In this document: piece after piece, positions 1 to 14,256 of the stretch | Numbering within the stretch: position 1 is the first letter of the stretch | Layout: the number at the start of each line of letters is the position of its first letter | Source of the DNA: a virus | Lineage: Duplodnaviria; Caudoviricetes | Length of the DNA stretch: 64,000 bases | Strand: one strand, 5' to 3' | IMG/VR virus record: IMGVR_UViG_3300032254_000001 | Location: 32,001 to 96,000 of that record | Program-made: the position numbers and the translations under genes | Notes under the pieces: generated by a model | What the model saw: the letters and a program-made list of their open reading frames with translations, nothing else | Told to the model about the DNA's origin: nothing | The model's database searches: none

Positions 1-15
1 AGAGCCTGCTCATCG

Positions 16-291
16 CTAAGGATGATGCTGTTCTTTTGGAACCTTTGGATACACTTTGTATCTTAGGATAACTAAGATAATAACAATGTTGAATGCGTAG
101 TTAGCGACTAATGGATACAGAATGGTTGGTTGGGCGAGTACATATATTAATACGAGTACTTCGCCCCACAGCCACATTTGGAGGAATGGCATATTGACGC
201 CATGCGTGTGTCCTTCTTTGCAACTCTGCCAGGCCATTGGCACACCGCAAAATGTTAACAAGAAGCTACCTACCCATCCAATAATTTCCAT
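16..291 (-). CDS. PQ-loop/SemiSWEET-like small membrane protein
   Basis: Three TM helices; IGWVGSFLLTFCGVPMAW resembles the PQ-loop repeat. Confidence 0.7.
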   Translation of the reverse strand: MEIIGWVGSFLLTFCGVPMAWQSCKEGHTHGVNMPFLQMWLWGEVLVLIYVLAQPTILYPLVANYAFNIVIILVILRYKVYPKVPKEQHHP

Positions 292-318
292 CGTGTTTCC
301 TCACTACTAAATATCACT

Positions 319-618
319 ATGAATGATATAATCTCAAATTGGATACTTGAAACATTAAGTGTCAAACATCCTGCGTTTAATAACATGCCACCTTGTCCGT
401 ACGCAAAGAAAGCATTGTTAGACGGTAACGTCAAAGTCCTTGAAGTAACAGACTTTGAAGAACAATTCGATCAACATAAAGATGTTGAGAAAGGACACGT
501 CGTTGTATTTCTATTTAACCCAACAGACATCACCCCGGAAGAATTAACTGCCCTAGCTGGGACGTATGCTATTTGCCAGGCCAGTCATGGGGTAAGGTAC
601 AAGAATTTACTAAAATGA
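319..618 (+). CDS. DUF1415-like protein, probably 3'-truncated
   Basis: W-x-E...PPCPYAKKA motif; C-terminus runs into the amidinotransferase fragment. Confidence 0.5.
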   Translation: MNDIISNWILETLSVKHPAFNNMPPCPYAKKALLDGNVKVLEVTDFEEQFDQHKDVEKGHVVVFLFNPTDITPEELTALAGTYAICQASHGVRYKNLLK

Positions 619-965
619 AGCGCAAGGTTGGCGGCAAGTGGTGGGTTCCTGGGCAAGAGGATAATGACGAGTTTACTGACTTTGTTGAAACATGGTTACA
701 GGATTGGGTTGGATTCTGCGAGGAAACAGTATTTGATGTGAATAGCTTTGTGCTAGACGAACACCATGTATGTGTATCGCAAATGAATCCACAAGTTAAT
801 GAGTTTCTTGCAAAGCACGATATGACACCAATTCATATTCCATGGCGCCACAGGTACTTCTGGGATGGTGGGTTGCATTGCATTACACTTGATTTGGAAA
901 GAGAAGGCACACAGAAGGACTTATTCATTAACAGAACAGGTCCAGTCACATGTATGGGATATTAA
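552..965 (+). pseudogene. C-terminal fragment of an amidinotransferase-family protein
   Basis: EETVFDVN and RHRYFWDGGLHCITLDLEREG motifs; N-terminal part missing, in-frame stop at 516-518. Confidence 0.75.
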
Positions 966-996
966 TAATAAATACTGTTACATTAAGGAACCCATC

Positions 997-1467
997 ATGA
1001 GATTCACAGAGATAGCAAAGAAGAAGCCAGTTAAATCAAAACCTAAAACGAAAGCTGAAATAGAAGAGCTACGTTATTCCATCCAAGCTGGCACAGTTAC
1101 ACAGCGCCAGGCATTTAGTATAAAGAAATTACTTGTTGGTATTATTGGAAAATATGCTACAGGAGATGATTGGGCTGTTAAGCAGAACTTTTTAGATGCG
1201 GGATTATATTACGAAGGTGAAGACCTGAATGAGGCTAATCGTATTGGAAAGGAAATAGTTGGTGCGCTATATGGATTCTTCCAAGATGGAGCGCGTCGAA
1301 GTGTTACTAAGCTGAAGCGTGAAGAAGATAATCAAACAATGTCATTTACTGCTATACCTATGGATGACCAAGGTAATAAAGCACCTCCTCAGATATCATT
1401 TACATGGTATAAGAATGCACAAACAGGCGGCCCTGTTATTGCTATCAACATCAACGCTCCGCGTTAA
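997..1467 (+). CDS. hypothetical late protein
   Basis: AAGGA RBS, AATAAATA late-promoter-like motif at 967-974, MRFTEI leader. Confidence 0.7.
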   Translation: MRFTEIAKKKPVKSKPKTKAEIEELRYSIQAGTVTQRQAFSIKKLLVGIIGKYATGDDWAVKQNFLDAGLYYEGEDLNEANRIGKEIVGALYGFFQDGARRSVTKLKREEDNQTMSFTAIPMDDQGNKAPPQISFTWYKNAQTGGPVIAININAPR

Positions 1468-1468
1468 T

Positions 1469-1542
1469 TGGATCTCCGGGTAGGACTCGAACCTACATTC
1501 CGGCAGTCAAAGTGCCGTGTCCTGCCATTAGACGACCAGAGA
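1469..1542 (-). tRNA. tRNA-Gln(TTG)
   Basis: Cloverleaf, loop CT-TTG-AC, encoded CCA. Confidence 0.9.
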
Positions 1543-1548
1543 ATAAAT

Positions 1549-1622
1549 TGGATACCCCTACAGGACTTGAACCTATAACTACTGAGTCAGAGTCAGTCGT
1601 TTTACCATTAAACTAAAGGGCA
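1549..1622 (-). tRNA. tRNA-Gln(CTG)
   Basis: Cloverleaf, loop CT-CTG-AC, CCA. Confidence 0.9.
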
Positions 1623-1631
1623 TTAAATTAA

Positions 1632-1750
1632 ATTGTTTAGCAGGATTCGAACCTACGCTCTCCACTGCGGAATTTACGTTACCATATTCAAGGAGGAATC
1701 GAACCTCAACTACCCTCGGGCGGATGTACTAACCGCTATACTATAAACAA
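1632..1750 (-). ncRNA. tRNA-like RNA with a 54-nt anticodon loop containing a second T-arm
   Basis: Acceptor TTGTTTA/TAAACAA, D-arm, stem TCCGC/GTGGA, internal GAGG-TTCGATT-CCTC. Confidence 0.6.
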
Positions 1751-1754
1751 AGAC

Positions 1755-1937
1755 TTACGAGAAACGCTTAACAGCTTGGTCTCGCGCTTCACTATCATTT
1801 CTTGCAACAACCCAAAGACTTCGTTCAACCCATTGCTTCTTAACAATAGCTTTATAAAAGATCTCATAAATGCGTTCAGGCCCTGGACCTCCAGGGGACA
1901 ACCTAACGTCAGTTATTTCGAACTTTCTCATCTTCAT
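1755..1937 (-). CDS. hypothetical protein
   Basis: ORF in operon order. Confidence 0.6.
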   Translation of the reverse strand: MKMRKFEITDVRLSPGGPGPERIYEIFYKAIVKKQWVERSLWVVARNDSEARDQAVKRFS

Positions 1938-1939
1938 GA

Positions 1940-2452
1940 TTATTCCTTTGCGTTATTTTGTGCCCAATCTAAATCAAGCACTTCGCCGTATTCTTCCACC
2001 ATCTCAATAGGACCTTCGTAGTCTGGAAGTCCATCTATATCCATATCGTTTATGTCATATGAGAAAGTGATGTGTGTTTTGTATTCTGGAAAATCGAATG
2101 TAGCATTATGCTCATCCATTAAGTAATCATGTCTTTCGTTTAGCTCAGGACAATCAAATTCTAAAACTAAACATTGCGGGCAATGTCCGTCATCGTCTGC
2201 TTGTCCTTCCCAAACATGCCATTCACCTGGCGTACCATGTAGAGCAGGATTAAGTTCACCCTGCGGCTTGTAATTTGGACATCTTCGTCTGCTATACAAT
2301 AAAGTAGAATGTAACTTATCTACTGGTGTAGCATTCGGGATATTGTTATTCTTAATGTATTCAACAATAGCATTCTTTGTTTCTTCACTAAAATGCACAC
2401 CTGCGTATGTACCTTTGTGATGTGTCTTTCTTATAAATTCATTTGACTTCAT
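1940..2452 (-). CDS. acb1: anti-CBASS Acb1-like 2H phosphodiesterase (T4 57B family)
   Basis: Two HxT motifs (KLHSTLLYSR, YKTHITFSYD) and C-terminal LDLDWA as in T4 Acb1; ATGA overlap with the upstream gene. Confidence 0.85.
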   Translation of the reverse strand: MKSNEFIRKTHHKGTYAGVHFSEETKNAIVEYIKNNNIPNATPVDKLHSTLLYSRRRCPNYKPQGELNPALHGTPGEWHVWEGQADDDGHCPQCLVLEFDCPELNERHDYLMDEHNATFDFPEYKTHITFSYDINDMDIDGLPDYEGPIEMVEEYGEVLDLDWAQNNAKE

Positions 2453-3417
2453 TTGCATAAACGGTAGGAATTTTTTCCTGCCTCCTTAACTTCGTACATT
2501 GCAATATCAGCACCTTCGATTAACTCATTGGTGTTGATAATACATTTCTCTCCGCTACTAAAGCAGATGCCTACGCTTGCTGTTTGTATTATTTCATTGC
2601 CATCATGTACACATGGCTTATTAAACAGATGCACTAAGTCAGCACATTTTTTAAGTAGGTCTTCTTTTTTATTATCTAGGCACGATACAACAAATTCATC
2701 ACCGCCGTAACGGGCAACAACATCTGTTTTTCTTGAAAACACAGATCTAATCTTTTCAGCAAAGTCTACAATAATTGCGTCACCTGCTACGTGTCCGTAT
2801 GTGTTATTGACTACGCTAAAGTCGTCCATGTCTAATAGGATTAACCCAACTGACGTTTTTGTTCTGTTTGCATTGTGTATTGTTCCTTCCATTTGTTCTA
2901 AGAAGAAACGCCTGTTGTACAAATCAGTGCCTGGATCTCTAAATGCTAATGCTTTTAATTCTTCTTCGTAACGTTTACGCTCTGTAATATCAGTTATCAT
3001 TGCAATGATAACTGATTCGTTACCATTTACAAACTGTAGCCTGACTTCGATCTCGTAAGTTGAGCCGTCTTTTCTTAGATGCGTAGTCTGGAATCTTAGT
3101 ATGTCTAACTCAAAAGTACGTAACGGCTGAATCATTTCAATGAACTCTGCTCGCGTAAATTCTGGCTTAACATCAAGTGGAGTCATACCTTTCATTTCAT
3201 CTAACGTGTACCCAAGGTTTTTAAGTGCGCCTTGACTAACTTCTGAGAATAGTAAGGTTTCACAATCAAATACATAAATCTCCTCAAATGAGTGTTCGAG
3301 GATCCTTTTGTATCTTGCCCTTTTATCATTAACTTCGTCTGTGATATCACATGTGGTTCCATCACGTGAACAATCGATTTTAGGCAACGGGGGGAATTTG
3401 TTTTTCTTATCGTCCAT
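2449..3417 (-). CDS. PAS-domain diguanylate cyclase (GGDEF)
   Basis: PAS/PAC region, D-x-G-T-D-L-Y-N-R-R, LDMDDF..VN..YGH..GD, intact RYGGDEF. Confidence 0.9.
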   Translation of the reverse strand: MDDKKNKFPPLPKIDCSRDGTTCDITDEVNDKRARYKRILEHSFEEIYVFDCETLLFSEVSQGALKNLGYTLDEMKGMTPLDVKPEFTRAEFIEMIQPLRTFELDILRFQTTHLRKDGSTYEIEVRLQFVNGNESVIIAMITDITERKRYEEELKALAFRDPGTDLYNRRFFLEQMEGTIHNANRTKTSVGLILLDMDDFSVVNNTYGHVAGDAIIVDFAEKIRSVFSRKTDVVARYGGDEFVVSCLDNKKEDLLKKCADLVHLFNKPCVHDGNEIIQTASVGICFSSGEKCIINTNELIEGADIAMYEVKEAGKNSYRLCK

Positions 3418-3424
3418 AGCGGTA

Positions 3425-3432
3425 TTTATACG
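3425..3432 (-). promoter_or_regulatory. T4-type late promoter TATAAATA (approximate position)
   Basis: Exact motif just upstream of the GGDEF ATG. Confidence 0.65.
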
Positions 3433-3670
3433 TACATTATTACATTAACTTAATACCGTGCTCTATTTATTGTGGGGCAAATCCTACTTCTGTATTGCCG
3501 CAGCAAGGGCATATTGCTTTGGCATTTTGCTTAACGTACTTCTCGTACGACGAGCGCCTAAGCACTGCGGTCCAAGTTGTTTCACATGTAACACAGACCG
3601 CGGATAGTATTACATATTGTGGTGAAAAGGATATTACATTTGACATAATATTACTTATACACTTTAAATT

Positions 3671-3744
3671 TGGAGCTGGTGAGAGGTATCGATCCTCCGT
3701 CTGAAACTTACCAAGTTCCTATTCTACCATTGAAATACACCAGC
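3671..3744 (-). tRNA. tRNA-Thr(GGT)
   Basis: Cloverleaf; atypical T-loop ATCGATA. Confidence 0.85.
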
Positions 3745-3809
3745 TTAATAACATTAATATTGCACACTAACTAACATCCATTCTGTTAATGTGCAAGGTT
3801 TAATGTTAC

Positions 3810-4286
3810 TCAGTGAGTAAACTTACCACGAGCACCACGGTCACCTGCGTGTGATGCAGCCCAAGCGTCTGGCTTAGGAATACCGTCGATACCAGTCATA
3901 CCCTTAACATAACCTAACGCTTCGCGTAAAACAATGCTAGAGTTGAACTGTTCATCTGAGTTGATGTCAATGTGGATTTCTACAGGCAAGTCTTCCAAAA
4001 GCTCTGCGAATTCCATATATACGCCAACTGCTTTATACACTTCGTTCATTAAGCGCATACGTGGCTTTTCTTTCTTAGGGTCATAATCACGTTCTACTTC
4101 TGTAGTGTGGAAAATCTTACCACCGTGCTTTGACGCAATATGTATGATAAACGCAACATTATAACGAGCGTACCATACACCTTTCTTCTTGTACTTTACT
4201 GAGTCAGCACCGATATATACCGTGCTTCCTTCTGGCATATCGTTCAAGTACTGTGTGATTTCTGCTTTTTCTACTTCAGTGAACAT
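3810..4286 (-). CDS. RNase H-like YkuK family protein
   Basis: YIGADS, EIHIDIN, KPDAWAASHAGD motifs. Confidence 0.75.
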   Translation of the reverse strand: MFTEVEKAEITQYLNDMPEGSTVYIGADSVKYKKKGVWYARYNVAFIIHIASKHGGKIFHTTEVERDYDPKKEKPRMRLMNEVYKAVGVYMEFAELLEDLPVEIHIDINSDEQFNSSIVLREALGYVKGMTGIDGIPKPDAWAASHAGDRGARGKFTH

Positions 4287-4325
4287 GGTCCACCCCCTCT
4301 TGGTTATGTATTACTTATAGTAATT

Positions 4326-4398
4326 TGGTGGTTACCGAGGGGTTCGGACCCTACCTGGCCATCCTTATGAGGGACGGATGTCTCCGCTGACTGTAACC
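4326..4398 (-). tRNA. degenerate tRNA-Met-like (CAT)
   Basis: Loop CT-CAT-AA and CCA; weak D and T arms. Confidence 0.5.
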
Positions 4399-4437
4399 GT
4401 TATGCGGAGGAAGGTAGGTGTAAGTTGCTACCTTCCG

Positions 4438-4848
4438 TTATTCTATCCTGCTTGTGGTACCACTTCCAAACTTACCGTGGTTCCAATTGCCTGTTCCTAA
4501 TTCGTCTAAACTGTGTATATGGATTTCGCAATACGCTGTATCGTGGTCTGCACCATTCCATGCGTTCCAATCCCATTCACATTTATACCATGCTTTCTCA
4601 TCTGCACCTAAATCCTTGTACAGTGAAATTGCTCCGCTTACTGCATGACCCCATGGCGGAATATTGTGATGGCTAATTAAACCAGCATTTTCAGTTACCG
4701 CTGTATAGCGTTGTCCTTCGTGCCAGTAAATAGCTTCTACTTCACCGCCGGATGATCTCGGCTCGCTTGAGCAACCTGCAATAAATGCACCTGCAACAAA
4801 CATAACGACTAACGTGTTAAATGCAGTTGATATAGTTTCGAGTTTCAT
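4438..4848 (-). CDS. hypothetical lipoprotein
   Basis: Hydrophobic N-terminus with IAGC lipobox. Confidence 0.6.
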   Translation of the reverse strand: MKLETISTAFNTLVVMFVAGAFIAGCSSEPRSSGGEVEAIYWHEGQRYTAVTENAGLISHHNIPPWGHAVSGAISLYKDLGADEKAWYKCEWDWNAWNGADHDTAYCEIHIHSLDELGTGNWNHGKFGSGTTSRIE

Positions 4849-4862
4849 AGGATTCCTATTAG

Positions 4863-5105
4863 TTAGTTTACAATTTGTTCTTTCGATTCTGCTAACTGGC
4901 GGGCAATGTCTTCGGCTACTGCAATCTCTTTGCGTATCCAACGCATGAACAATATAGCCTTGTCCTCTGCGTTCATTGCTGCGGTACCTACATCACTAAC
5001 TGGAACTGGAAATTTAAATCCACATTCTGTAGTGTACCATAACTCACCTTCTTTGTAAAAGAGAAACGTCACTTTCTTATCTTTAATCATATCTTTAATG
5101 TTCAT
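4863..5105 (-). CDS. hypothetical protein
   Basis: ORF with AAGGAG RBS. Confidence 0.65.
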   Translation of the reverse strand: MNIKDMIKDKKVTFLFYKEGELWYTTECGFKFPVPVSDVGTAAMNAEDKAILFMRWIRKEIAVAEDIARQLAESKEQIVN

Positions 5106-5129
5106 GCAGTTTCTCCTTTATTGCATTGT

Positions 5130-5205
5130 TGCTAGCGATCAGGAGTCGAACCTGAGGTGTGACTATTAAGAGTCTAATGGTGTCCCCGTCCTCGGGGTCA
5201 CTAGC
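5130..5205 (-). ncRNA. tRNA-like RNA with 8-bp acceptor and 5-bp T-stem (selC-like fold), unclear anticodon
   Basis: GCTAGTGA/TCGCTAGC, D hairpin CCCCG-AGGA-CGGGG, TCAGG-TTCGACT-CCTGA. Confidence 0.5.
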
Positions 5206-5207
5206 GG

Positions 5208-5675
5208 TTATTTTAATACGTCTTTAACGATACCTGACGCAGACTTACCATCGTATAGACCATTGTGTCTGGCCTTAAGCAGTTTCATAACTTCGCCCAT
5301 CATACGTGGTGACTTTTCAGGAAGTTCAACGTCTACTATGTCAACAACTATAGCACGTAGTTCTTCATTAGTCATTAACTTAGGCATATACTTTTCAAGA
5401 ATATCAATCTCTAGTTGAAGCTCTAAAATCTTTGAAGCTTCGGGACTTTCAGCATGGGTACCTGTCTTTATTAAATGCCCCATAGTCTCATTTGCATTCT
5501 TGAGAAACTTCTTCATAACTGCTTGAACTTCAGCATCGGTAGATTCACGATTGCCGTCATTCTTACCAGGCATTGAAGCTTCGCCGATAAGGGTTGTTAA
5601 AATGCTAGCAGCCTCTTTATCTCTAATCTTGCGAGCCGTTAGCTGATCTGCTTTTACCGTTGCCATTAATGACAT
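5208..5675 (-). CDS. GatB/YqeY domain protein
   Basis: YqeY-like helical pattern (EIDILEKYMPK, MGEVMK). Confidence 0.8.
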   Translation of the reverse strand: MSLMATVKADQLTARKIRDKEAASILTTLIGEASMPGKNDGNRESTDAEVQAVMKKFLKNANETMGHLIKTGTHAESPEASKILELQLEIDILEKYMPKLMTNEELRAIVVDIVDVELPEKSPRMMGEVMKLLKARHNGLYDGKSASGIVKDVLK

Positions 5676-5697
5676 ATTGCTTCTCCTGGTTATTGTT

Positions 5698-5780
5698 TGG
5701 TACGTCTGGAGGGAGTCGAACCCTCAAGGGATCGGGGTTTAAACCCGTTAGCTGTGCCAATTTACATAATCCACAGACGC
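5698..5780 (-). tRNA. tRNA-Leu(TAA) without long variable arm, enlarged D-loop
   Basis: Loop TT-TAA-AC, A73, CCA. Confidence 0.75.
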
Positions 5781-5790
5781 ATTGTTAATA

Positions 5791-5907
5791 GGGTGATTAC
5801 CATAGGATTCGAACCTACAAGACGACAGTCTAACAGTGTGACCAAAACTAAGCTATACAAAGTTCCAGCCTAACCACCGAATGTGCTACCAATACACGTG
5901 ATAATCA
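5791..5907 (-). ncRNA. type-II tRNA-like RNA with a ~36-nt anticodon loop
   Basis: 8-bp acceptor, D-arm, stem CGGTG/CACTG, variable hairpin, T-arm. Confidence 0.55.
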
Positions 5908-5912
5908 TTGTT

Positions 5913-5989
5913 TGGCAGGGGAGGAGAGATTCGAACTCCCAACACGCGGATTTGGAGACCGCTGCTCTAGCCATTGGAGCTACACCCCT
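5913..5989 (-). tRNA. tRNA-Trp(CCA)
   Basis: Canonical cloverleaf, G73. Confidence 0.95.
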
Positions 5990-7120
5990 TTAAATCATAC
6001 TCCAGTAATTAGTACGTGGAGTTTCTACATTCTTTGCAATGAAAATAAACTTGTCTGTTTCGTAAACTAGCTTACCTTCTTTCTCGTAAGCTAAGTCTTC
6101 GTCCTGTACGTAAATTTCATCGTATAAATCATCTGGATCAAGCTCAGGAATATCAGCTCTACCCCTAACTTGGTCTGTCCTGGCTACTGCCTTGATCTTA
6201 ATGTAAGTATATCTGTTAGCACTACCTGGCTTAGAAACAAATGGCGTTTCAAATATTTCACGCTCTGTGTCTGTGCCACGTTCGATAATTTTAACAATTT
6301 CAAGCATTGCACCTGAGCTTTCACGTAAGTCAATGTTTAAATCTTCTGTAGTATCTGCAATAGCAGTACCGAAACGTAAATGCTCTTCAACAATTGATTG
6401 TAACATATCAAAGCTGAATATGTTCGAGCGTCTTGATACATCGGTAATATCTTTAACTATTTCTTTGCTTACTCCATTGTCTTGGCAGTAACCAACAATG
6501 CTACCTTCATCCAACTTCTTGTACTTGAAGTGGTAGTAAACACGACTTGGGCGATTCAGCATAAAGTCGTTAATATCAAGTTCGCTGTTCTCAGTCAATA
6601 TGAACATACGCTTTGTTTTATCAACACCGTCCATAAGTGACAACAGTGCCTTTTGTGGTATTTCACCTTCGTTGTTATGTCTATCTGACGATGCATACAT
6701 TTTACCAAATTCATCAAATACAACAGCGCATTCGCCAATTGTTTCAATAAAGTCTGTAAACTGTGAACCAGCATATGCATCTTTAATTAACAGAACTGGT
6801 AGCTCTAAATCAGTGACTACTTTGTTTGCAAGTAAAGACATTAGTAATGTTTTACCTGTACCTTTGTCTCCTGTCAGGAGAATGCCTGTTGAAGTATCGC
6901 GATCCTTGTAAGTGTTTAAACACTTTTCAACGCGACCTGGAGTTTTACCATAAATCTTTTCAGGAAGCTCCAGCTGGTCCTTTGTAATTGTAAGGTAAAA
7001 ACCTTGCAACTGACTATACTGAACAGTATAAATTCTTGGAGGCAAAGCGTCCAGCGTTGTTTCTTCATTCATATTGAATACGTGTACGGTTGAACCGCTT
7101 ACAAAGAACTTAGTTTTCAT
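5990..7120 (-). CDS. AAA+ ATPase
   Basis: Walker A GDKGTGKT, Walker B VVFDEFGK, RPSR arginine finger. Confidence 0.85.
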   Translation of the reverse strand: MKTKFFVSGSTVHVFNMNEETTLDALPPRIYTVQYSQLQGFYLTITKDQLELPEKIYGKTPGRVEKCLNTYKDRDTSTGILLTGDKGTGKTLLMSLLANKVVTDLELPVLLIKDAYAGSQFTDFIETIGECAVVFDEFGKMYASSDRHNNEGEIPQKALLSLMDGVDKTKRMFILTENSELDINDFMLNRPSRVYYHFKYKKLDEGSIVGYCQDNGVSKEIVKDITDVSRRSNIFSFDMLQSIVEEHLRFGTAIADTTEDLNIDLRESSGAMLEIVKIIERGTDTEREIFETPFVSKPGSANRYTYIKIKAVARTDQVRGRADIPELDPDDLYDEIYVQDEDLAYEKEGKLVYETDKFIFIAKNVETPRTNYWSMI

Positions 7121-7202
7121 GTATTAGCCTTAGGTATGTGTTTATTAACTTTTAAGTATTATATGACACTTTTGAGCATTGAGCAACTATTTTGGTAAAA
7201 AT

Positions 7203-7289
7203 TGGTATTCCGGACGGGAATCGAACCCGCTAATTGCTTTCGCAAAGCCTGAGTGAAAGTCAGGTGACCGACCGTTAGTCATCCGGAAT
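7203..7289 (-). tRNA. tRNA-Glu(TTC) with long variable arm
   Basis: Loop CT-TTC-AC; V-arm TTGC-GAAA-GCAA. Confidence 0.85.
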
Positions 7290-7295
7290 ATAATT

Positions 7296-7382
7296 TGGAG
7301 CCAAGAGTGAGATTCGAACTCACGACGGGGTTACCCCTCCGGCTTACAAAACCGGTGCAATCGTCCACTATGCGACCTTGGC
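7296..7382 (-). tRNA. tRNA-Thr(TGT) with long variable arm
   Basis: Loop TT-TGT-AA; V-arm GGGG-TAA-CCCC. Confidence 0.85.
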
Positions 7383-7398
7383 AAGATAAAATGTACTT

Positions 7399-7475
7399 TG
7401 GGGTGAAGGACGAGATTTGAACTCGCATCTGACTCATTCACAGTGAGGGGCTTTACCAATTAAGCTACCGACACC
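7399..7475 (-). tRNA. tRNA-His(GTG)
   Basis: Loop CT-GTG-AA, G-1/C73. Confidence 0.9.
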
Positions 7476-7489
7476 CCAAAATACACTCG

Positions 7490-7515
7490 TAAAAAAGCAG
7501 ACCGGAGTCTGCTTT
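7490..7515 (-). terminator. rho-independent terminator
   Basis: GCAGAC-TCCG-GTCTGC followed by T6. Confidence 0.85.
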
Positions 7516-7516
7516 A

Positions 7517-7700
7517 TGGTTGTGGGACGCGGACTTGAACCGCTGGTAGATTTCCTTCCCAACTAATTTAGCTATGGGCTTCAACTCCACAGCCCAAGAC
7601 AGTAACTCAAATACTTGCCCGAGGCGGTCGACTAGGTAGTCCCCAAGTTATGAGCAAGGGCGATTTATTGTGTAGTCGATACCACACCGAAGTGCCTAAC
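7517..7700 (-). ncRNA. structured RNA ending in a T-arm and CCA
   Basis: GCGG-TTCAAGT-CCGC, GGGAC/GTCCC, CCA, internal helices. Confidence 0.5.
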
Positions 7701-7713
7701 TAAAATTCTAAAA

Positions 7714-7831
7714 TGGTGCCTCCCGCGAGACTTGAACTCGCATGACTTTCGTCGGGGGATTTTATCGAACACCCTTATTTAAAGATGCTCTGTAAAAGTC
7801 CCCTGTGTATGCCTGATTCCACCAGAGAGGC
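7714..7831 (-). tRNA. tRNA-Leu-type gene with a 32-nt insertion in the anticodon loop
   Basis: Leu D-arm, V-arm and A73; stem GGGGA/TCCCC encloses 39 nt including a 10-bp hairpin. Confidence 0.8.
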
Positions 7832-7895
7832 TTTGTTTTTGTTTATTTATTATAACATCATGTGCTTCAAATAAATACCGTATAGGAGAAACACA

Positions 7896-8510
7896 ATGAA
7901 TAGAATACAAGAATACTTACCAAGCTACTGCTACAGTTCATCTAAGATGAAAAGCGTAGATGGTATTGTTATCCACTATTTCAGTGGTAAGTATCAATTT
8001 GCAGATGATCCGTTTAACACTGAAAAATGTTTAAATCTTTTTAAAGACTTAAACCGTCCCGCTAAAGAGCGAGAACACTTTAAGATGAACGATGTGCAAA
8101 AGCGTATGTACGCTTCAGCACACTTCATGATTGCACGAGACGGTACAATATATGATCTAGTTCCACTTCCACAACGTGCATGGCATGCTGGTAAATCCGA
8201 ATGGAACGGTAAGTCGCATTGCAATAACTGGATGGTTGGTATCGAAATGGTTGCTACTGGTAGCAGCGGATACACAGACGAACAGTATAAAGCACTTATT
8301 AATCTTACTGAAGAACTAATTAAAGAACACGATATCTCTTGGGATAACATCACAGGACACGAAAATGTCGCTCCTGGACGTAAAAGAGATCCAGGTTCAA
8401 AGTTTGATTGGGATCGTTATCGCGCAATGAAAGAACCAGCTAAGTTAGCATATGCTGCCGCTATGGCTGAATACATTCCGTGGGCTGACGACGAAGACGA
8501 CGATTTTTAA
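7896..8510 (+). CDS. N-acetylmuramoyl-L-alanine amidase (AmpD-like; candidate endolysin)
   Basis: IVIHY, SAHFMI, AWHAG, GIEM, GHENVAPGRKRDPG motifs. Confidence 0.9.
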   Translation: MNRIQEYLPSYCYSSSKMKSVDGIVIHYFSGKYQFADDPFNTEKCLNLFKDLNRPAKEREHFKMNDVQKRMYASAHFMIARDGTIYDLVPLPQRAWHAGKSEWNGKSHCNNWMVGIEMVATGSSGYTDEQYKALINLTEELIKEHDISWDNITGHENVAPGRKRDPGSKFDWDRYRAMKEPAKLAYAAAMAEYIPWADDEDDDF

Positions 8511-8512
8511 TT

Positions 8513-8598
8513 TGGTGCGCCGGGTGGGTTTCGAACCCACACGCTCTTTCGAGCACGAGGTTCTTAGCCTCGCATGTCTGCCATTCCATCACCAGCGC
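8513..8598 (-). tRNA. tRNA-Leu(AAG)
   Basis: Loop CT-AAG-AA, long V-arm. Confidence 0.85.
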
Positions 8599-8600
8599 AT

Positions 8601-8683
8601 TGGTACGTCCGGTGGGATTCGAACCCACAAAGGTCTGGTGTTTGAAACCAGTAGCTGTGCCAATTTACATTAACCACGGACGC
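8601..8683 (-). tRNA. tRNA-Leu(CAA) without long variable arm, enlarged D-loop
   Basis: Stem CTGGT/ACCAG, loop TT-CAA-AC. Confidence 0.8.
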
Positions 8684-8691
8684 ATTACATT

Positions 8692-8774
8692 TGGTACCTG
8701 GGGCGGGAGTCGAACCCGCAAGGGTCTGGAGTCTAAATCCAGTAGCTGTGCCAATTTACATTAACCACCCAGGC
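8692..8774 (-). tRNA. tRNA-Leu(TAG) without long variable arm, enlarged D-loop
   Basis: Stem CTGGA/TCCAG, loop TT-TAG-AC. Confidence 0.8.
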
Positions 8775-8780
8775 ATAATT

Positions 8781-8856
8781 TGGTAGGACGACAGGGCCTC
8801 GAACCCTGATCACAACGGTTAAAAGCCGCGTCTCTGCCCACTTGAGTTACCGTCCT
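8781..8856 (-). tRNA. tRNA-Lys(TTT)
   Basis: Loop CT-TTT-AA. Confidence 0.85.
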
Positions 8857-8862
8857 ATAATT

Positions 8863-8938
8863 TGGTGGACCGCCCCGGCAACGATCCGGGAACTTCTCGG
8901 GTAAGAGCCGAGTACTCTGCCAATTGAGTTAGCAGTCC
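8863..8938 (-). tRNA. tRNA-Lys(CTT)
   Basis: Loop CT-CTT-AC; T-loop ATCGTTG. Confidence 0.85.
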
Positions 8939-8944
8939 ATAATT

Positions 8945-9031
8945 TGGTGGGGCGACAGGGATTCGAACCCTGGATGTCCTTTCGGATCGTCTGATTAAAA
9001 GTCAGGTGCCATACCGCTTGGCGACCGCCCC
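8945..9031 (-). tRNA. tRNA-Lys(TTT) with long variable arm
   Basis: Loop CT-TTT-AA; V-arm TCC-GAAA-GGA. Confidence 0.85.
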
Positions 9032-9032
9032 G

Positions 9033-9060
9033 TAAAAAAACCTAGCAAGCTAGGTTTTTG
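9033..9060 (-). terminator. rho-independent terminator immediately 5' of tRNA-Lys
   Basis: AAAAACCTAG-CTTG-CTAGG-T7. Confidence 0.75.
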
Positions 9061-9165
9061 TTTGTATGTTAGTTTTATCCTTCTTCAAAAAGGACATCCA
9101 GGGTTCGAACCGATATCATAATCTATTGTTTACCAACATACGGTATAAATTGTGGTCGCGCTAGA

Positions 9166-9414
9166 TTATGCGGTTGCTACTGTGTCTGTTTCAGTTAACT
9201 TTGCAGTAACTTCGACGCCACGGCATTTTAGAACTGTTAGTGCTTTCTGATGAAACTTCTTCTGGCCTTTGTTGCTCAGAACTTCCATGAGTGCTTCTGT
9301 TGACATTGTGTGTGCTGATTTACCACCTTTACGTGTTCCGATTAAGAACTTATGTGCTGGTGCTGCAACAACTAGGCCGCTTTTAGTTTTCTTTGTTGAA
9401 CGATTCTTTGGCAT
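9166..9414 (-). CDS. small basic hypothetical protein
   Basis: AGAGG RBS before MPKNRST. Confidence 0.6.
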   Translation of the reverse strand: MPKNRSTKKTKSGLVVAAPAHKFLIGTRKGGKSAHTMSTEALMEVLSNKGQKKFHQKALTVLKCRGVEVTAKLTETDTVATA

Positions 9415-9491
9415 TACTATTTCCTCTGTTAAGGGTTTAAACAAAAACAGCGACAATATTGCCGCTGTTTTTAATTACATTTACGTTACTT

Positions 9492-10775
9492 TTAGAAACG
9501 TTGTGAATACGATGCTTGTAATTCGTACTGGTCCATTTTCAATGATACAGTTTGTGCATCAAAGCCTGTTGGTCCAGTAATAGTATTACTTGGCGCGTAC
9601 ATTGCAGCTAGTGAGAACTCTGAAGTGTCACTTAGCGGAGTTGTGAAACCAGCTGTGTAGTGGGTTTCTATTACTGCTGGAGCTAAAATGTTGAACATGT
9701 TCTGTCCATCTGTAATAGGCTGTTCAGCGTGTGAAACACCTAAGCGGTACTTAGTAGATGTACCAAACTCATAACCGAACTTGTAAATGGTCATATCTTC
9801 CCAACCAAATCCAGCACCGTTCTCACCGCCTAAGCGACCTGAACCGTCTTGGTAAGCCATTAAGTTTTGAACACTATTACCAATTGAGTCAACATCACCA
9901 TAAGCGATATGTTGTGCATCAAATACTAATGTAGTTGTTGGAGAAGTTTTAATAGCTACGCCTAATGTCGCTGTAGCTGGAATATTAAATTCACCACCGT
10001 TAGCAAATAAACCTGAGTAGTCTTCTAACAAGCTCATGTTAATTTGTGACTGGTAAGAAGCACCAAATGCTATAGGACCAGCGTCACCCTGCCAACCTAC
10101 TTTGATGCCAATACCTGTTGAAATATCAGCGTCATTGTTAGTTAGTTTAGATGCGTCTGTTGACATCTGACCAAACATTTGCAAGCCTTTAGCTTCGAAT
10201 GTCTGTATAGCTGTTACAGCACTAACGCCAATTGCGTGATGCTTATCGACTTGATGTGATAATGAAGCGTTAATGAATAACTGTTTCAAATCTACACCAG
10301 CAGTACCACCGCCAAATGTACCAGAAGCGCCTGGAACCGTCATTGCCATTGGAGAAGCAACACCTTTGTATTCTGTGTTCATGCCACCGCTTCCGTAAAC
10401 AGAAACACCAATTGCTGTTACGTCGCTAATCATTTTGTTATAACCAAAATGTGGAATTGCAAAGTAATCGTTGTCACTTTCGGCTGTACCTGGCATTAAT
10501 GGGAAAGTACCTGGTTGTCCGGTTGGATTGCCTTCTACCGTGTATTCACGACGTGGGCTAAAAATAGCTAAACCAACATCTAGTCGCGTACCTACTTTGA
10601 CCATGCCTGCTGGGTTAGTTGCTGATGCTAATGCATCCTGTGAGTATGCAACACCGGCGCCAGCCATACCTTTTTCTTTGGTACTGTATCCGTGTGCAAA
10701 ATATCCGTTTGTTGCAAATGCAACTGATGACGACATTAATGTAGCTGCCGCGATTGCCATTGTTAGTTTTTTCAT
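9492..10775 (-). CDS. OmpP1/FadL/TodX family outer-membrane transporter
   Basis: Signal peptide, ATNGYFAHGY..GMAGAGVA, NPAG hatch motif, terminal Phe. Confidence 0.9.
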   Translation of the reverse strand: MKKLTMAIAAATLMSSSVAFATNGYFAHGYSTKEKGMAGAGVAYSQDALASATNPAGMVKVGTRLDVGLAIFSPRREYTVEGNPTGQPGTFPLMPGTAESDNDYFAIPHFGYNKMISDVTAIGVSVYGSGGMNTEYKGVASPMAMTVPGASGTFGGGTAGVDLKQLFINASLSHQVDKHHAIGVSAVTAIQTFEAKGLQMFGQMSTDASKLTNNDADISTGIGIKVGWQGDAGPIAFGASYQSQINMSLLEDYSGLFANGGEFNIPATATLGVAIKTSPTTTLVFDAQHIAYGDVDSIGNSVQNLMAYQDGSGRLGGENGAGFGWEDMTIYKFGYEFGTSTKYRLGVSHAEQPITDGQNMFNILAPAVIETHYTAGFTTPLSDTSEFSLAAMYAPSNTITGPTGFDAQTVSLKMDQYELQASYSQRF

Positions 10776-10857
10776 TATAATTGTTTCCTCAATATTGATT
10801 GTTAACGTAAGTTAGTATACATATTGAGAACAAGTAAGTCTACTCGTTTGGCTAAAT

Positions 10858-10931
10858 TGGTACCCAGTGTTGGAATCGAACCAACGTCTCCGCCTTGTAA
10901 AAGCGGCGATAATCCCCTCAGCTAACCGGGT
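10858..10931 (-). tRNA. tRNA-Val(TAC)
   Basis: Loop TT-TAC-AA; weak D-stem. Confidence 0.75.
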
Positions 10932-10937
10932 GTAAAT

Positions 10938-11013
10938 TGGTATCTCCAGTAGGAACCGAGCCTACAACCTTCGCTATGTTAAAGCGATGCTCTACCAGTT
11001 GAGCTATGGAGAT
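10938..11013 (-). tRNA. tRNA-Val(AAC)
   Basis: Loop TT-AAC-AT; T-loop CTCGGTT. Confidence 0.75.
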
Positions 11014-11015
11014 AT

Positions 11016-11090
11016 TGGAGCTCTTACCCAGAACCGAGCTGGGATTTCAGCGTTACGAGTGCCGTGTTCTGCCTGTTGAACTATAAGAGC
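11016..11090 (-). tRNA. tRNA-Thr(CGT)
   Basis: Loop CT-CGT-AA; T-loop CTCGGTT. Confidence 0.8.
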
Positions 11091-11094
11091 AATT

Positions 11095-11170
11095 TGGTAT
11101 CCCTGACTGGATTCGAACCAGTATTCCAAGACTTAGGAGGTCCGGCGTTGTCCAGTTGACTTACAAGGAT
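11095..11170 (-). tRNA. tRNA-Arg(CCT)
   Basis: Loop CT-CCT-AA. Confidence 0.75.
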
Positions 11171-11176
11171 ATTGTT

Positions 11177-11252
11177 TGGCGTCCCCGGTAGGATTCGAAC
11201 CCACATTCTTCGGCTTAGAAGACCTAGCGTTCTCCAGTTGACTTACAGGGAC
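11177..11252 (-). tRNA. tRNA-Arg(TCT)
   Basis: Loop CT-TCT-AA. Confidence 0.8.
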
Positions 11253-11258
11253 ATAATT

Positions 11259-11339
11259 TGGCGCCCACGGTAGGGTTCGAACCTACATTTGCATCCAATT
11301 ACCTTACTCGACGTTCGTAGCGCCGGGGGTTACGTGGGC
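11259..11339 (-). tRNA. D-armless tRNA-Arg(ACG) with long variable region
   Basis: Acceptor, anticodon and T arms intact; D-arm replaced by TAACCCC. Confidence 0.7.
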
Positions 11340-11346
11340 AGTATTT

Positions 11347-11438
11347 TGGTACCTCTACCAGGATTCGAACCTGGACTACTCGCTAATCTGGCGATACGAC
11401 CGTATAAAAGTCGTGTGCTACCGTTACACTATAGAGGT
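11347..11438 (-). tRNA. tRNA-Ile(TAT) with long variable arm
   Basis: Loop TT-TAT-AC; V-arm TCGC..GCGA. Confidence 0.8.
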
Positions 11439-11445
11439 GCAGTGC

Positions 11446-11522
11446 TGGTGGGCCTTGTAGGATTTGAACCTACGACCAACGAATTATGAGTTCGCTGCTC
11501 TGACCAGCTGAGCTAAAGGCCC
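11446..11522 (-). tRNA. tRNA-Ile2(CAT)
   Basis: CAT anticodon; body resembles ileX-type tRNA. Confidence 0.75.
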
Positions 11523-11528
11523 GATGTT

Positions 11529-11614
11529 TGGTAGCGAGAGTAGGAGTCGAACCTACGAAACCTTTCGGTATAGGGTTATGAGCCCCATCACTTTATCCAC
11601 TTGTATATCTCGCG
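11529..11614 (-). tRNA. initiator-type tRNA-fMet(CAT) with long variable arm
   Basis: C1:T72 mismatch, three G-C pairs in the anticodon stem, V-arm ACC-GAAA-GGT. Confidence 0.75.
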
Positions 11615-11710
11615 TCAATAAGTTACATCACTTACTATGATTCGGCCGAACCACGGATAGTGATGCTTTCCCGGCAAGTATTGTAAGCGGCCGCTTAATT
11701 TCCTTGCCTT

Positions 11711-11786
11711 GCATACCAGGTGGGACTCGAACCCACATACACAGCCTTCAACGGCTGCCGCTGTTCCAATTCGCGTACTAGCGTAC
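11711..11786 (-). pseudogene. degenerate tRNA
   Basis: T-arm intact, 6-nt anticodon loop, weak acceptor, no CCA. Confidence 0.45.
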
Positions 11787-11797
11787 TTCTTTAAATT

Positions 11798-11873
11798 TGG
11801 TGCATCCTGTTGGTAACGCTCCAACTCCTATGGGGTTTCAATCCATTGCTTCTACTTAGTTAGCTTAGGATGC
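11798..11873 (-). tRNA. tRNA-Phe(GAA)
   Basis: Loop TT-GAA-AC; T-loop AGCGTTA. Confidence 0.8.
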
Positions 11874-11878
11874 ATGTT

Positions 11879-11952
11879 TGGTAGTTCCAGAAGGACTTGA
11901 ACCCTCATAGACCGGTAATCGGCCGGCAGCCTTACCATTAGACGATGGAACT
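11879..11952 (-). tRNA. tRNA-Ile(GAT)
   Basis: Loop CC-GAT-TA (lacks U33). Confidence 0.75.
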
Positions 11953-11958
11953 ATTGTT

Positions 11959-12046
11959 TGGTACTACCGGTTGGAGTCGAACCAACTGTAAGGAATTACC
12001 CTTGCACGGTTATCAGCCGTGTGCTTAACCGTTCAGCGTCGGTAGT
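11959..12046 (-). tRNA. tRNA-Ile(GAT) with long variable arm
   Basis: Loop CT-GAT-AA; V-arm AAGGG-TAAT-TCCTT. Confidence 0.85.
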
Positions 12047-12052
12047 ATAATA

Positions 12053-12149
12053 TGGCGGAAGAGGGCGGACTCGAACCCCCACAGCGCAGGATCGCTACGC
12101 TGACCGGTTTTCAAGACCGGGCCGATACCAAATTTCGGTTGACTCTTCC
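12053..12149 (-). tRNA. tRNA-Ser(TGA)
   Basis: Type II cloverleaf, G73. Confidence 0.9.
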
Positions 12150-12242
12150 ATTAATTCGTTCGCGACGTTCGATGCAATTGGCTCCGTCCACGACACTGAC
12201 ACTAACCGTTACCATTGCACACGGTTGACGTGTTTGTAAAAT

Positions 12243-12329
12243 TGGCGGAAGATGTGAGATTCGAACTCACACAGCCTTACGGCTGTACTCCTTAGCAGGG
12301 AGCTATGTTACCAGTTGCATCAATCTTCC
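12243..12329 (-). tRNA. tRNA-Ser(GCT)
   Basis: Type II cloverleaf, G73. Confidence 0.9.
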
Positions 12330-12397
12330 AGTAATAGTGTTGGGCCATATAGATTCAGATTCTACTGTAAATTGTTTGACAACACTACATTTTAAAA

Positions 12398-12530
12398 TGG
12401 GGCAATGTGTTGGAGTTGAACCAACTATAACTAACGACAAACTTTACGTATCATCGCTGCAGGCTAGTTACGCTCCGCTGTAGCTACTAAACCGTTAGTG
12501 CATTAACCAACAATTATGCTATACACCGCC
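12398..12530 (-). ncRNA. His-like tRNA body with a long (~55 nt) anticodon-loop insertion
   Basis: 8-bp acceptor GGCGGTGT/ACATTGCC plus CCA, stem CTAACG/CGTTAG, T-arm. Confidence 0.6.
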
Positions 12531-12541
12531 ATTGAATTTGA

Positions 12542-12679
12542 TTGAGGAAAGTGGAACCACTTTTTATGGCGGCTGTGCTACCGTTACACTACATGCCAGC
12601 ATTCCTGGTACATGGGAGGAGTCGAACCTCCACTTGCTGCTTGGCTTATTTTAGAAGGAAGTAAATCCCATAGCCTCAA
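12542..12679 (-). ncRNA. Y-RNA-like (YrlA-type) RNA with a circularly permuted tRNA module
   Basis: GAGG-CTA-stem-TCCTTCT scaffold enclosing a T-arm, loop-closed acceptor stem and D-arm. Confidence 0.65.
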
Positions 12680-12880
12680 ATTTTTGTTACTTTTTCGATT
12701 CATCTATTAGGTGCTTAATAGCCCTTAGTGAACGTAAGTCTACTTCCGCTTGCTTGCGAAAGATTGGATTTTTTTGTGTTTTTAAAACTTCAACCAGTAA
12801 GTTAATTTTCTGGTTTAAACGTTCTATTGTTATATTAATGTACTCATGTTAATACCCTCTATGGTAAGTGTATTTATGAT

Positions 12881-12966
12881 TGGTGCTGCCTGTAGGATTC
12901 GAACCTACTCATCCAGTGGAATCGGGTTTACAATCCGACGTGACTCTCCATCTTCACCGCGACAGC
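12881..12966 (-). tRNA. tRNA-Tyr(GTA)
   Basis: Loop TT-GTA-AA, V-arm. Confidence 0.85.
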
Positions 12967-12978
12967 GTAATTTTAATT

Positions 12979-13065
12979 TGGTGGATCTAGTTGGATTCGA
13001 ACCAACAATGCCAGAAGCGCCGAGTTTACAGTCCGGTGGTAGCAACCAGTTCTACCATTAGATCC
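12979..13065 (-). tRNA. tRNA-Tyr(GTA)
   Basis: Loop CT-GTA-AA, V-arm. Confidence 0.85.
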
Positions 13066-13071
13066 ATTGTT

Positions 13072-13157
13072 TGGAAGCGACGGTGAGGGTCGAACTCACA
13101 ATGCCCGAAAGCGCCAGATTCAAAGTCTGGTGGGGTTACCAATTTTCCTACATCGCT
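13072..13157 (-). tRNA. tRNA-Gln(TTG) with long variable arm
   Basis: Loop CT-TTG-AA; V-arm GCT-TTCG-GGC. Confidence 0.85.
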
Positions 13158-13167
13158 ATAATTTATT

Positions 13168-13242
13168 TGGAGACTCTACTCGGTTTCGAACCGAGGCTTG
13201 AAGATTTGCAATCAACCGCACTACCAATTATGCTACAGAGTC
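13168..13242 (-). tRNA. tRNA-Cys(GCA)
   Basis: Loop TT-GCA-AA, U73. Confidence 0.8.
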
Positions 13243-13250
13243 AAAGTGTT

Positions 13251-13322
13251 TGGCACCGCGACAAGGTGTTGATCCCTGCAAGCCGGGGGTTGGAATCCCA
13301 GCACCTCCCCGGAGGCCACGGC
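13251..13322 (-). tRNA. atypical selC-like tRNA, anticodon probably CCA (Trp)
   Basis: D hairpin GCCTC-CGGG-GAGGT, 8-nt anticodon loop ATTCCAAC, G73, CCA. Confidence 0.5.
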
Positions 13323-13335
13323 ATTAAAAAGGTAC

Positions 13336-13444
13336 CTTGTAAGCTCTCGTTAGACTGATTAACTACCGCGTGTAGTCGCGTTCTAACAATAGGCGTGTAC
13401 TGACGCCTCGTTTTACTTGTGATGCATTGCATCCTTCTTACAAG
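13336..13444 (-). ncRNA. multibranch structured RNA candidate
   Basis: Closing stem CTTGTAAG/CTTACAAG with three internal hairpins. Confidence 0.5.
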
Positions 13445-13518
13445 CAGCCCTGTACAGGATTCGAACCTGTGTTTCCAGCCTTCACGGGCCGGTGTCCTAA
13501 CCACTAGACGAACGGGGC
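13444..13518 (-). tRNA. Glu/Asp-body tRNA with 8-nt anticodon loop (CCGTGAAG)
   Basis: Intact D and T arms, no CCA. Confidence 0.5.
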
Positions 13519-13669
13519 ATAAAAATCGTGGAACTGATCATATTACAAAACAGTACCTAAACACTGTTACAATGCAATAAGGGTAGCGCAAAGTTCCGTA
13601 GCCTATATTCTACCATTTTCTGACTTCACTGCATATGCATAATTAGGTTGCACATACATCACATCAAAT

Positions 13670-13932
13670 TGGCTGTGACAGTTGGGTTCGAACCAACGTT
13701 ACCGGCTCAAATCGCTTATGCTGGGTGCCGGTGTTTTGCCGCCTACTTGCTTTCATTGTACACTTTCTTGATAAGTTTCTTTTAGCTTTTGCACGTCTGG
13801 CCTGCTCAATCCTTTCAAAAGAGTCTGGTAGTTTTTATAGCCTAAGCGATTGTTACCATTGGTGTTACTAACTAAGGTACTTCTCAACATTACTAATGCA
13901 GTCTTACTAACTTTCGTCTAAACTACATCACA
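13670..13932 (-). ncRNA. tRNA gene with a large D-loop insertion carrying a 45-codon ORF and a 20-nt anticodon loop
   Basis: Acceptor TGTGATG/TGTCACA-G-CCA, D-stem GTTT/AAAC, CCGGC/GCCGG, T-arm. Confidence 0.7.
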
Positions 13933-14007
13933 ATAAATTCTTGCAGTTTCTCCGACTCGATCCGTTAACTAGTATGGATGTCCGTACAATGCCTCGTAGA
14001 AGTAAAT

Positions 14008-14081
14008 TGGTGGACACGCGGAGAGTCGAACTCCATCTTCCTCATTGCAAAAGAGGTGCTTTCCCGTTAAGCTAACGGCCC
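14008..14081 (-). tRNA. tRNA-Ala(TGC)
   Basis: G3:U70, loop TT-TGC-AA; imperfect acceptor. Confidence 0.75.
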
Positions 14082-14235: not shown

Positions 14236-14256
14236 AATTGTTTGGCTTTATAAATT

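Follow-up and report, generated by a model that had tools for sequence, protein, structure and literature searches.

Within the window, by which we mean the whole 64,000-nucleotide stretch of viral DNA that was analysed, two genes on the minus strand are arranged as an operon. The order is TATAAATA (3423-3430), a 5 nt gap, the gene for DGC1, a PAS-GGDEF protein of 322 aa (2449-3417, ATG at 3417), and the gene for Acb1, a 2H phosphodiesterase of 170 aa (1940-2452). The two genes share an ATGA stop/start overlap at 2449-2452 (TGA at 2449-2451, Acb1 ATG at 2452), suggesting translational coupling of DGC1 to Acb1, and the ATG at 2452 is the aligned start in relatives. An earlier note on this DNA had described this layout of promoter motif, PAS-GGDEF gene, ATGA overlap and Acb1, and each element was found where the note had placed it. 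Directly 3' of Acb1 is a small ORF of 58-60 aa (1755-1937, minus strand), which has a 51%-identity homologue after Acb1 in one related locus (L156); elsewhere unrelated small ORFs are found there. Upstream of the promoter, on the same strand, are tRNA-Thr (3671-3744) and an RNase-H-like gene (PF04308, 3810-4286), which form a conserved block with DGC1, and two tRNA-Gln genes (1469-1622, minus strand) close the block. The operon lies at one end of a cluster of approximately 37 tRNA genes.

The window comes from a complete virus record of 344,483 bp with direct terminal repeats. Its major capsid protein shares 62-67% identity with the capsid proteins of jumbo myophages related to T4, such as PA5oct, Paride and Vibrio phage 2.275.O, and the source is a T4-related jumbo phage with a complete genome of 344 kb. 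Two metagenome runs from microbial mats contain its DNA, and the source sample may be one of the two. A single contig at a depth of 416 covers the locus with zero differences, and this contig may itself come from the source sample.

Some smaller features of the window were recorded. Fragments resembling tRNA arms lie between the small ORF and tRNA-Gln (1630-1750, minus strand); they are possibly decayed tRNAs, and neither ARAGORN nor Rfam called a tRNA there. Far from the main cluster, a tRNA with a CTA anticodon (61267-61340, minus strand; tRNA-Pyl according to ARAGORN) is a possible amber suppressor. Two short overlapping ORFs at 319-965 (plus strand) have weak partial matches to the longer families phrog_28122 and phrog_25854 and may be remnants of broken genes. 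Among the tRNA genes are an amidase (7896-8510, plus strand) and an AAA ATPase (5990-7120, minus strand), which are syntenic in several relatives, and a gene of a PHROG 'tRNA amidotransferase' family (5208-5675, minus strand). An Rfam search of positions 1-20000 found no c-di-GMP riboswitch and no family except tRNA.

In the window the exact 8-mer TATAAATA occurs 2 times where 6.2 are expected, so it is not enriched. Genome-wide, TAAATA-N5-ATG occurs at 36 sites, 31 of which open ORFs of at least 50 aa, and each of the spacings 2-4 and 6-9 gives 4-10 sites and 0-2 ORFs. The large terminase gene and a gene for a virion structural protein both have the same arrangement in front of them, so that the motif stands before packaging and virion genes, and there is no -35 element. 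Exact TAAATA-N5-ATG is found before 9 of 13 DGC1 orthologues, with near variants in the remaining loci. These data bear out the proposal of a late-type promoter. There is no Shine-Dalgarno sequence at the 5' end of DGC1, and TATAAATA is probably a T4-type late promoter giving a leaderless mRNA, a timing and a start site that we infer from the motif. Scans for sigma-70 promoters and terminators gave chance levels only, and a search with PF16805 (dependence on gp55/gp33-type factors), which had no positive control, gave no match.

DGC1 matches the Pfam families PAS_9 (E 2.6e-6) and GGDEF (E 5e-38), and its AlphaFold model (mean pLDDT 86) matches PAS/LOV-GGDEF structures. The protein has a disordered N-terminus, a PAS domain (approximately aa 33-146), a linker helix and a GGDEF domain (approximately aa 158-320), and this PAS-linker-GGDEF identity, as had been claimed, is supported alike by Pfam, by PDB and by the structure model. 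The PAS domain is of a common bacterial subtype, 40-54% identical to the PAS domains of multi-domain sensors, and no LOV or heme signature was seen in it. DGC1 belongs to a family of about 33 proteins with 47-66% identity, beyond which matches fall to about 32%. Single-sequence queries for both genes found nothing in viral contigs and alignment queries were needed. All 14 DGC1 loci examined have phage-type surroundings, and a family-specific DNA pattern found no family member among 185,579 bacterial and archaeal species genomes; one apparent match (L230) was a chance hit. The dN/dS of the GGDEF part is approximately 0.08-0.2, which points to strong purifying selection. We considered whether the cyclase is a recent host-derived insertion beside a resident Acb1. 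This was rejected because the GC3 of DGC1 (0.34) equals the genome mean and because Acb1 is the variable partner, the cyclase being the fixed gene of the locus.

Active-site residues were mapped using the PleD numbering from PMC7288161 and PMC12943098. The GGDEF loop (G238-F242) and the metal ligand D196 (PleD D327) are invariant in the family, and D240/E241 (metal) and the guanine readers N204 and D213 (PleD N335/D344) are kept in 30 homologues. The phosphate binders K311 and K315 (PleD K442/R446, with Lys for Arg) are present, Y308 and K311 are invariant or conservatively kept in the 30 homologues, and the cross-dimer R169 (PleD R300) is Arg or Lys across the family. At the inhibitory site, the RxxD residues R229 and D232, which lie with the GGDEF loop (238-242) in 2692-2733 (minus strand), and the secondary R185 are invariant; the third primary Arg (PleD R390) is Asp, Glu or Gln.

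The earlier note had called the active site intact, and this does not hold. In the helix-2 motif (2779-2832, minus strand) D196, N204 and D213 are kept and two residues are changed. S201 stands at PleD K332 (Ser 28, Gly 2, Asn 2 among 32 family members), and N205 stands at PleD D336, making ND into NN in 32/32. A third fixed change is Gly163 at PleD L294, in the wide turn DxLT, where Leu is missing in 32/32. In control GGDEF domains, which included generic bacterial GGDEFs among the metagenome matches listed, Lys is found at K332 in 168/168 and Asp at D336 in 164/168. An assembly error behind Ser201 is ruled out by the use of AGC and AGT codons across orthologues. PleD K332 contacts substrate phosphates (bioRxiv 2025.08.22.671821), and PMC12943098, a secondary source, describes it as a transition-state stabiliser. 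In the literature searched, neither an assay of a naturally occurring Ser/Asn variant nor mutagenesis data for K332 turned up. DGC1 therefore shares with PleD, WspR, tDGC, 8c05 and PA0861 the sensor-linker-GGDEF order, the metal and guanine ligands, GGDEF, RxxD and the secondary I-site Arg, but differs from PleD-type cyclases in having Ser, Gly or Asn for K332, Asn for D336, a changed DxLT and an acidic residue at R390. The Hypr signature, Ser at PleD D344, is absent and D213 is invariant, which rules out a Hypr-type cGAMP synthase (PMC7288161, PMC6456294). Like the class II GGDEFs, including Hypr GacA (PMC13725321, PMC6456294), DGC1 combines fixed signature changes with an intact GGDEF loop; unlike GacA, it lacks the Asp-to-Ser signature and is changed at other positions. 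By its residues it fits the ambiguous class II GGDEFs of PMC13725321.

The same changes occur elsewhere. Scans of bacterial genomes and viral sequences gave 57 loci with the Ser/Gly+Asn pair, nearly all from a wide range of bacteria and most of them canonical in their other motifs, and 3 to 9 changes are needed to explain the pair on a tree with both columns masked. The scan pattern required Asn, so covariation of the K332 and D336 positions is not measurable from it. One protein nested in the phage clade (P0141) has both Lys and Asp at these positions. We infer that Lys and Asp, one helical turn apart, form a compensated ion pair, so that their joint loss would preserve charge. Nature has thereby set up an experiment on how GGDEF enzymes work: 32 proteins are without a lysine described as stabilising the transition state, one clade member has regained it, and the role of the pair can be directly assayed. 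In bacterial genomes (L232-L319), K332 changed to Ser, Gly or Arg and D336 changed to Asn were seen together in 88 matches from many phyla; no description of this bacterial variant was found in the literature.

Taken together, the residues make it likely that DGC1 is active as a c-di-GMP synthase, because the metal and cross-dimer catalytic residues of PMC6456294 are all kept, the Ser/Gly+Asn pair recurs in unrelated bacterial cyclases and P0141, a member of the phage clade, carries Lys as well as Asp. Activity is probably slower than that of canonical enzymes, since the transition-state Lys/Asp pair is replaced by Ser/Asn.

DGC1 is not the only c-di-GMP gene of the phage. A second PAS-GGDEF gene, DGC2 (G000:C1:7689-8465, L001, minus strand), lies outside the window in a run of genes for RNA repair, between an Rnl1 RNA ligase and a metallophosphoesterase, near Pnkp. 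DGC2 keeps K332 and ND, ends before the R446 position and has no late motif; an orthologue (46%) has a similar context in the related genome G002. A stand-alone EAL gene (G000:C1:153833-154657, L002, plus strand) has all catalytic motifs and lies behind TAAATA-N5-ATG. It belongs to a family of 16 proteins with 49-60% identity, a member in a second relative, G001, lies behind this promoter motif too, and 3/3 large genomes with DGC1 carry a stand-alone EAL. G002 has four c-di-GMP genes in total, including a 662-aa GGDEF-EAL hybrid behind a late motif and an EAL gene 4 nt upstream of its DGC1 orthologue (L011:4911-6594, L163). No PilZ domain was found in the genome. On these small numbers, the association of DGC1 with c-di-GMP turnover genes is no looser than its association with Acb1. 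A different large virus of 224 kb (G014, L322-L325) carries four GGDEF genes, one EAL domain and Acb1, and one of its GGDEFs has the Ser/Asn variant independently.

The losses in the active site also suit a DGC1 that is weak or dead and acts by binding: it could sense or soak up c-di-GMP or GTP, pair with host cyclases as a dominant negative, or activate the phage's EAL on sensing GTP, in effect as a split PAS-GGDEF-EAL. The K332, D336 and L294 equivalents are changed while the GTP-binding and I-site residues (R185, R229, D232) are invariant, an EAL gene has the same promoter motif and another lies directly upstream of the G002 orthologue, and there are known cases of EAL domains regulated by a GTP-binding GGDEF domain (PMC9061725, PMC13725321). 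If this were so, late expression would lower rather than raise c-di-GMP. We consider it unlikely. A GGDEF domain that only binds has in most cases lost parts of its GGDEF loop or its metal ligands, but in DGC1 these are all invariant, as are the cross-dimer residues that catalysis requires (PMC6456294). Furthermore, the EAL next to DGC1 in G002 is only 28% identical to the EAL of this phage, so its adjacency is a separate event.

The second gene of the operon was identified as an Acb1-like 2H phosphodiesterase in the earlier note and this assignment is well supported. The protein scores 123 bits against PF23474 (cut-off 27, E 7e-36) and matches PDB 7t26, the Acb1 of Erwinia phage FBB1, with E 1.4e-22. 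Its tetrad H48/T50 and H127/T129 (T4 H44, T46, H113, T115) is invariant in 9 homologues. In the 7t26 alignment the stacking aromatics and lid Trp (Y16, W81, F121, W163) correspond to T4 Y12, W74, F107 and W147, and the adenine-reading E157 to T4 E141, so that all nine T4 Acb1 residues named in PMC9117128 are present. T4 Acb1 cleaves cGAMP, cUA and cAAA but not cGG because its Glu reads adenine, its activity appears about 15 min into infection, and 9/9 further Acb1 homologues tested cleaved cGAMP and cAAA (PMC9117128). Because the nine contact positions are kept, including the adenine-reading Glu, the phage's Acb1 very probably removes the CBASS signals cGAMP, cUA and cAAA and spares c-di-GMP. 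The two predicted activities are therefore chemically compatible. The protein resembles the Acb1 of T4 and FBB1 (gp57B, PMC9117128) in its 2H fold, HxT motifs, aromatics, lid Trp, Glu and predicted late timing, but is only about 40% identical and belongs to a jumbo-phage clade in which it is coupled to a GGDEF gene. An N-terminal leader of the type M-K/R-x-x-E-F-I, absent from DGC1, is common to Acb1 (start 2452) and about eight other proteins genome-wide, those in the window being encoded at 36147-37202, 37852-38241 and 41754-42320. By analogy it could perhaps be a T4-like capsid-targeting sequence (cf. PMC5694885). In one relative (L158:4168-5109) Acb1 carries a fused C-terminal extension, a domain of about 145 aa for which no Pfam match is listed.

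Whether the gene pair is conserved was checked by co-occurrence. Acb1 adjoins DGC1 in 9 of 14 orthologous loci, over which cyclase identity is 49-66%. It directly follows DGC1 in the window, L007/8, L009, L151/2, L155, L156, L158 and L159; in L004 the order is swapped and Acb1 directly precedes DGC1 with a 5-nt gap. ATGA-type overlaps are also present in L009, L158 and L159, and other tight junctions in L007, L151, L155 and L156. Acb1 is missing beside DGC1 in L005/6, L153, L154/L010, L157 and L011, and none was found in the large DGC1 genomes G001 (83% complete) and G002 (72% complete). The nine paired Acb1 proteins form one branch in a quick tree (SH-aLRT 89), suggesting that the pairing arose once, and the distribution of the pair on the DGC tree requires at least three, probably five, changes. 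These trees point to a single origin followed by one order swap and at least three losses. Outside the family, no GGDEF was found within about 6 kb of Acb1 at 65 other viral Acb1 loci, the GGDEF-coupled context is also absent from RsoM2USA, and 12 of 13 large Acb1-bearing phage genomes tested had no GGDEF. The pair is conserved to the extent that the refuting condition named in the earlier note, a pair that is not conserved, does not apply, but each gene occurs without the other and neither needs its partner.

This distribution bears on the view that the two genes are a dedicated module, kept together by selection because a rise in c-di-GMP and the clearing of immune nucleotides must coincide within one cell and keep a fixed ratio. 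The adjacency in 9/14 loci, mostly by stop/start overlaps, and the 5-nt gap after the swap in L004 argue for it, as do the sparing of cGG and the timing of T4 Acb1 (PMC9117128). However, the pairing has a single origin and repeated loss, the two large genomes above show no Acb1, and the RNase-H-like gene with tRNA-Thr, present upstream of DGC1 in 11/13 loci, is a more constant neighbour than Acb1, so synteny there is generally stable. Acb1 is found in more than 1300 phage records vs 115 with GGDEF matches, many of which resemble bacterial fragments. A dedicated module is, on this evidence, improbable. A complex prediction for DGC1 and Acb1 scored 0.00, which gives no answer and is evidence neither way.

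On balance we lean, with modest confidence, towards a late operon that is old and has been inherited vertically within one lineage of jumbo myophages, and that encodes two independently acting nucleotide-signal enzymes with shared timing. It would be a conserved operon of two signal-control genes, probably independent of each other, inside a phage c-di-GMP toolkit; a coupled module is not demonstrated. Late in infection one mRNA would give DGC1 and, via coupling, Acb1. DGC1 would dimerise through PAS and the linker helix and convert GTP to c-di-GMP, probably slowly, with output kept low by product binding at the I-site, whose RxxD is conserved. Acb1 would hydrolyse the adenine-containing CBASS signals and leave c-di-GMP alone. 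DGC1, DGC2 and EAL together would set the motility, adhesion, pili, matrix or receptor state of the host in the mat biofilm. The benefit may, speculatively, be superinfection exclusion or control of the lysis site (cf. the YIP peptides, PMC8085984, and c-di-GMP-dependent receptors, PMC8669472). The link between DGC1 and Acb1 would be shared timing and a stable locus, with no biochemical hand-off. Of the second-messenger module that the earlier note had proposed, the operon structure, the late-type promoter and the identity of Acb1 stand, and the module in the form proposed is not supported. Because the site of DGC1 is non-canonical, a rise in c-di-GMP can be put forward only conditionally, and because an apparently active EAL shares the promoter motif, the net late effect is not readable from the operon alone.

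Several points count against the independent-enzyme reading. K332 has a described role in the transition state and contacts the substrate phosphates, L294 is lost as well, and Asp, Glu or Gln stands at the third primary I-site Arg (PleD R390). An active cyclase co-expressed with a sensor-less EAL would risk futile cycling. Finally, the pair stays tight over about 50% divergence and an order swap, beyond what passive synteny strictly needs.

A broader proposal takes the altered GGDEF as a phage adaptation with a changed output, either an Acb1-resistant decoy or non-standard guanine nucleotide or regulation of the phage's EAL by binding only, co-translated with Acb1. If true, the phage would remodel all the cyclic dinucleotides of its host: immune signals would be destroyed, and the signal that guards or lifestyle circuits monitor would be supplied or buffered. 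We regard this as quite improbable. The reading in which DGC1 makes linear pppGpG or another linkage, possibly as an Acb1-resistant decoy that masks the depletion of signals from Panoptes-type guards or jams host sensors, is very unlikely. Three fixed changes do surround the substrate pocket, DGC1 is coupled to a signal-destroying enzyme, guards that sense depletion of cyclic nucleotides exist (PMC12657218, PMC13640721) and an independent Ser/Asn GGDEF is present in the Acb1-bearing phage G014. But the guanine-specific D213 and R169 are kept, the I-site appears to be of c-di-GMP type and the same variant is found in ordinary bacterial sensor cyclases; moreover, the known Panoptes signals are adenine-containing and deletion of acb1 had no effect on Panoptes defence (PMC12657218). 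Panoptes OptS/mCpol is similar in being a palm-domain cyclic-dinucleotide synthase in the Acb/CBASS conflict, but is host-encoded, lacks the GGDEF motif, makes 2'3'-c-di-AMP and is paired with a membrane effector (PMC12657218). Lastly, that the 2H protein has no second-messenger link and mainly heals 2',3'-cyclic RNA ends in tRNA repair, as its place in the tRNA cluster, the Rnl1 and Pnkp genes, a role proposed for jumbo-phage 2H proteins (PMC7824862) and the PHROG label 'RNA ligase' might suggest, is hardly credible given that its best matches are the Acb1 profile and structure, that it retains the lid Trp, the aromatics that stack on the bases and the Glu that reads adenine, and that all the further homologues assayed in PMC9117128 cleaved cGAMP and cAAA.

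Both domains are already known, and a few lytic phages (G, SP-15) have an annotated GGDEF gene. For metagenomes, cyclase and phosphodiesterase genes of viruses have been mentioned (PMC11295528), and a survey of 224 jumbo phages discusses phosphodiesterases, with GGDEF appearing only in its references. In the literature searched, which covered few subscription journals, we came across no phage diguanylate cyclase that had been characterised, nor any report of a GGDEF-Acb1 pairing or of the Ser/Asn active-site variant. Other phage GGDEFs (Bacillus phage G gp350, SP-15, and those of G004, G005, G014 and G019-G021) belong to unrelated families with about 30% identity; among the viral loci examined, none of them adjoins Acb1 and K332 is kept in all but one. 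The YIP peptides of PB1-like phages (PMC8085984) are also a case of a lytic phage manipulating host c-di-GMP, but they activate the host cyclase YfiN, whereas this phage encodes its own cyclases and phosphodiesterase. The lineage carries a cyclase family that is stable and under selection, together with a second cyclase and an EAL, and one cyclase is predicted to be co-expressed with an anti-CBASS nuclease. Whether phages steer the lifestyle of their hosts in biofilms can be tested directly with it.

Two further observations concern the neighbourhood of DGC1 in relatives. A multiheme cytochrome c gene lies two genes downstream of Acb1 in three loci (L009:2820-3614, L151:7562-8359 and L155:7103-7900); a CxxCH scan of the present genome found no multiheme cytochrome c. 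Additionally, TctA and DctP genes (tripartite transporter) are present inside the phage tRNA region in L151:11843-12786 and L153:1700-4828.
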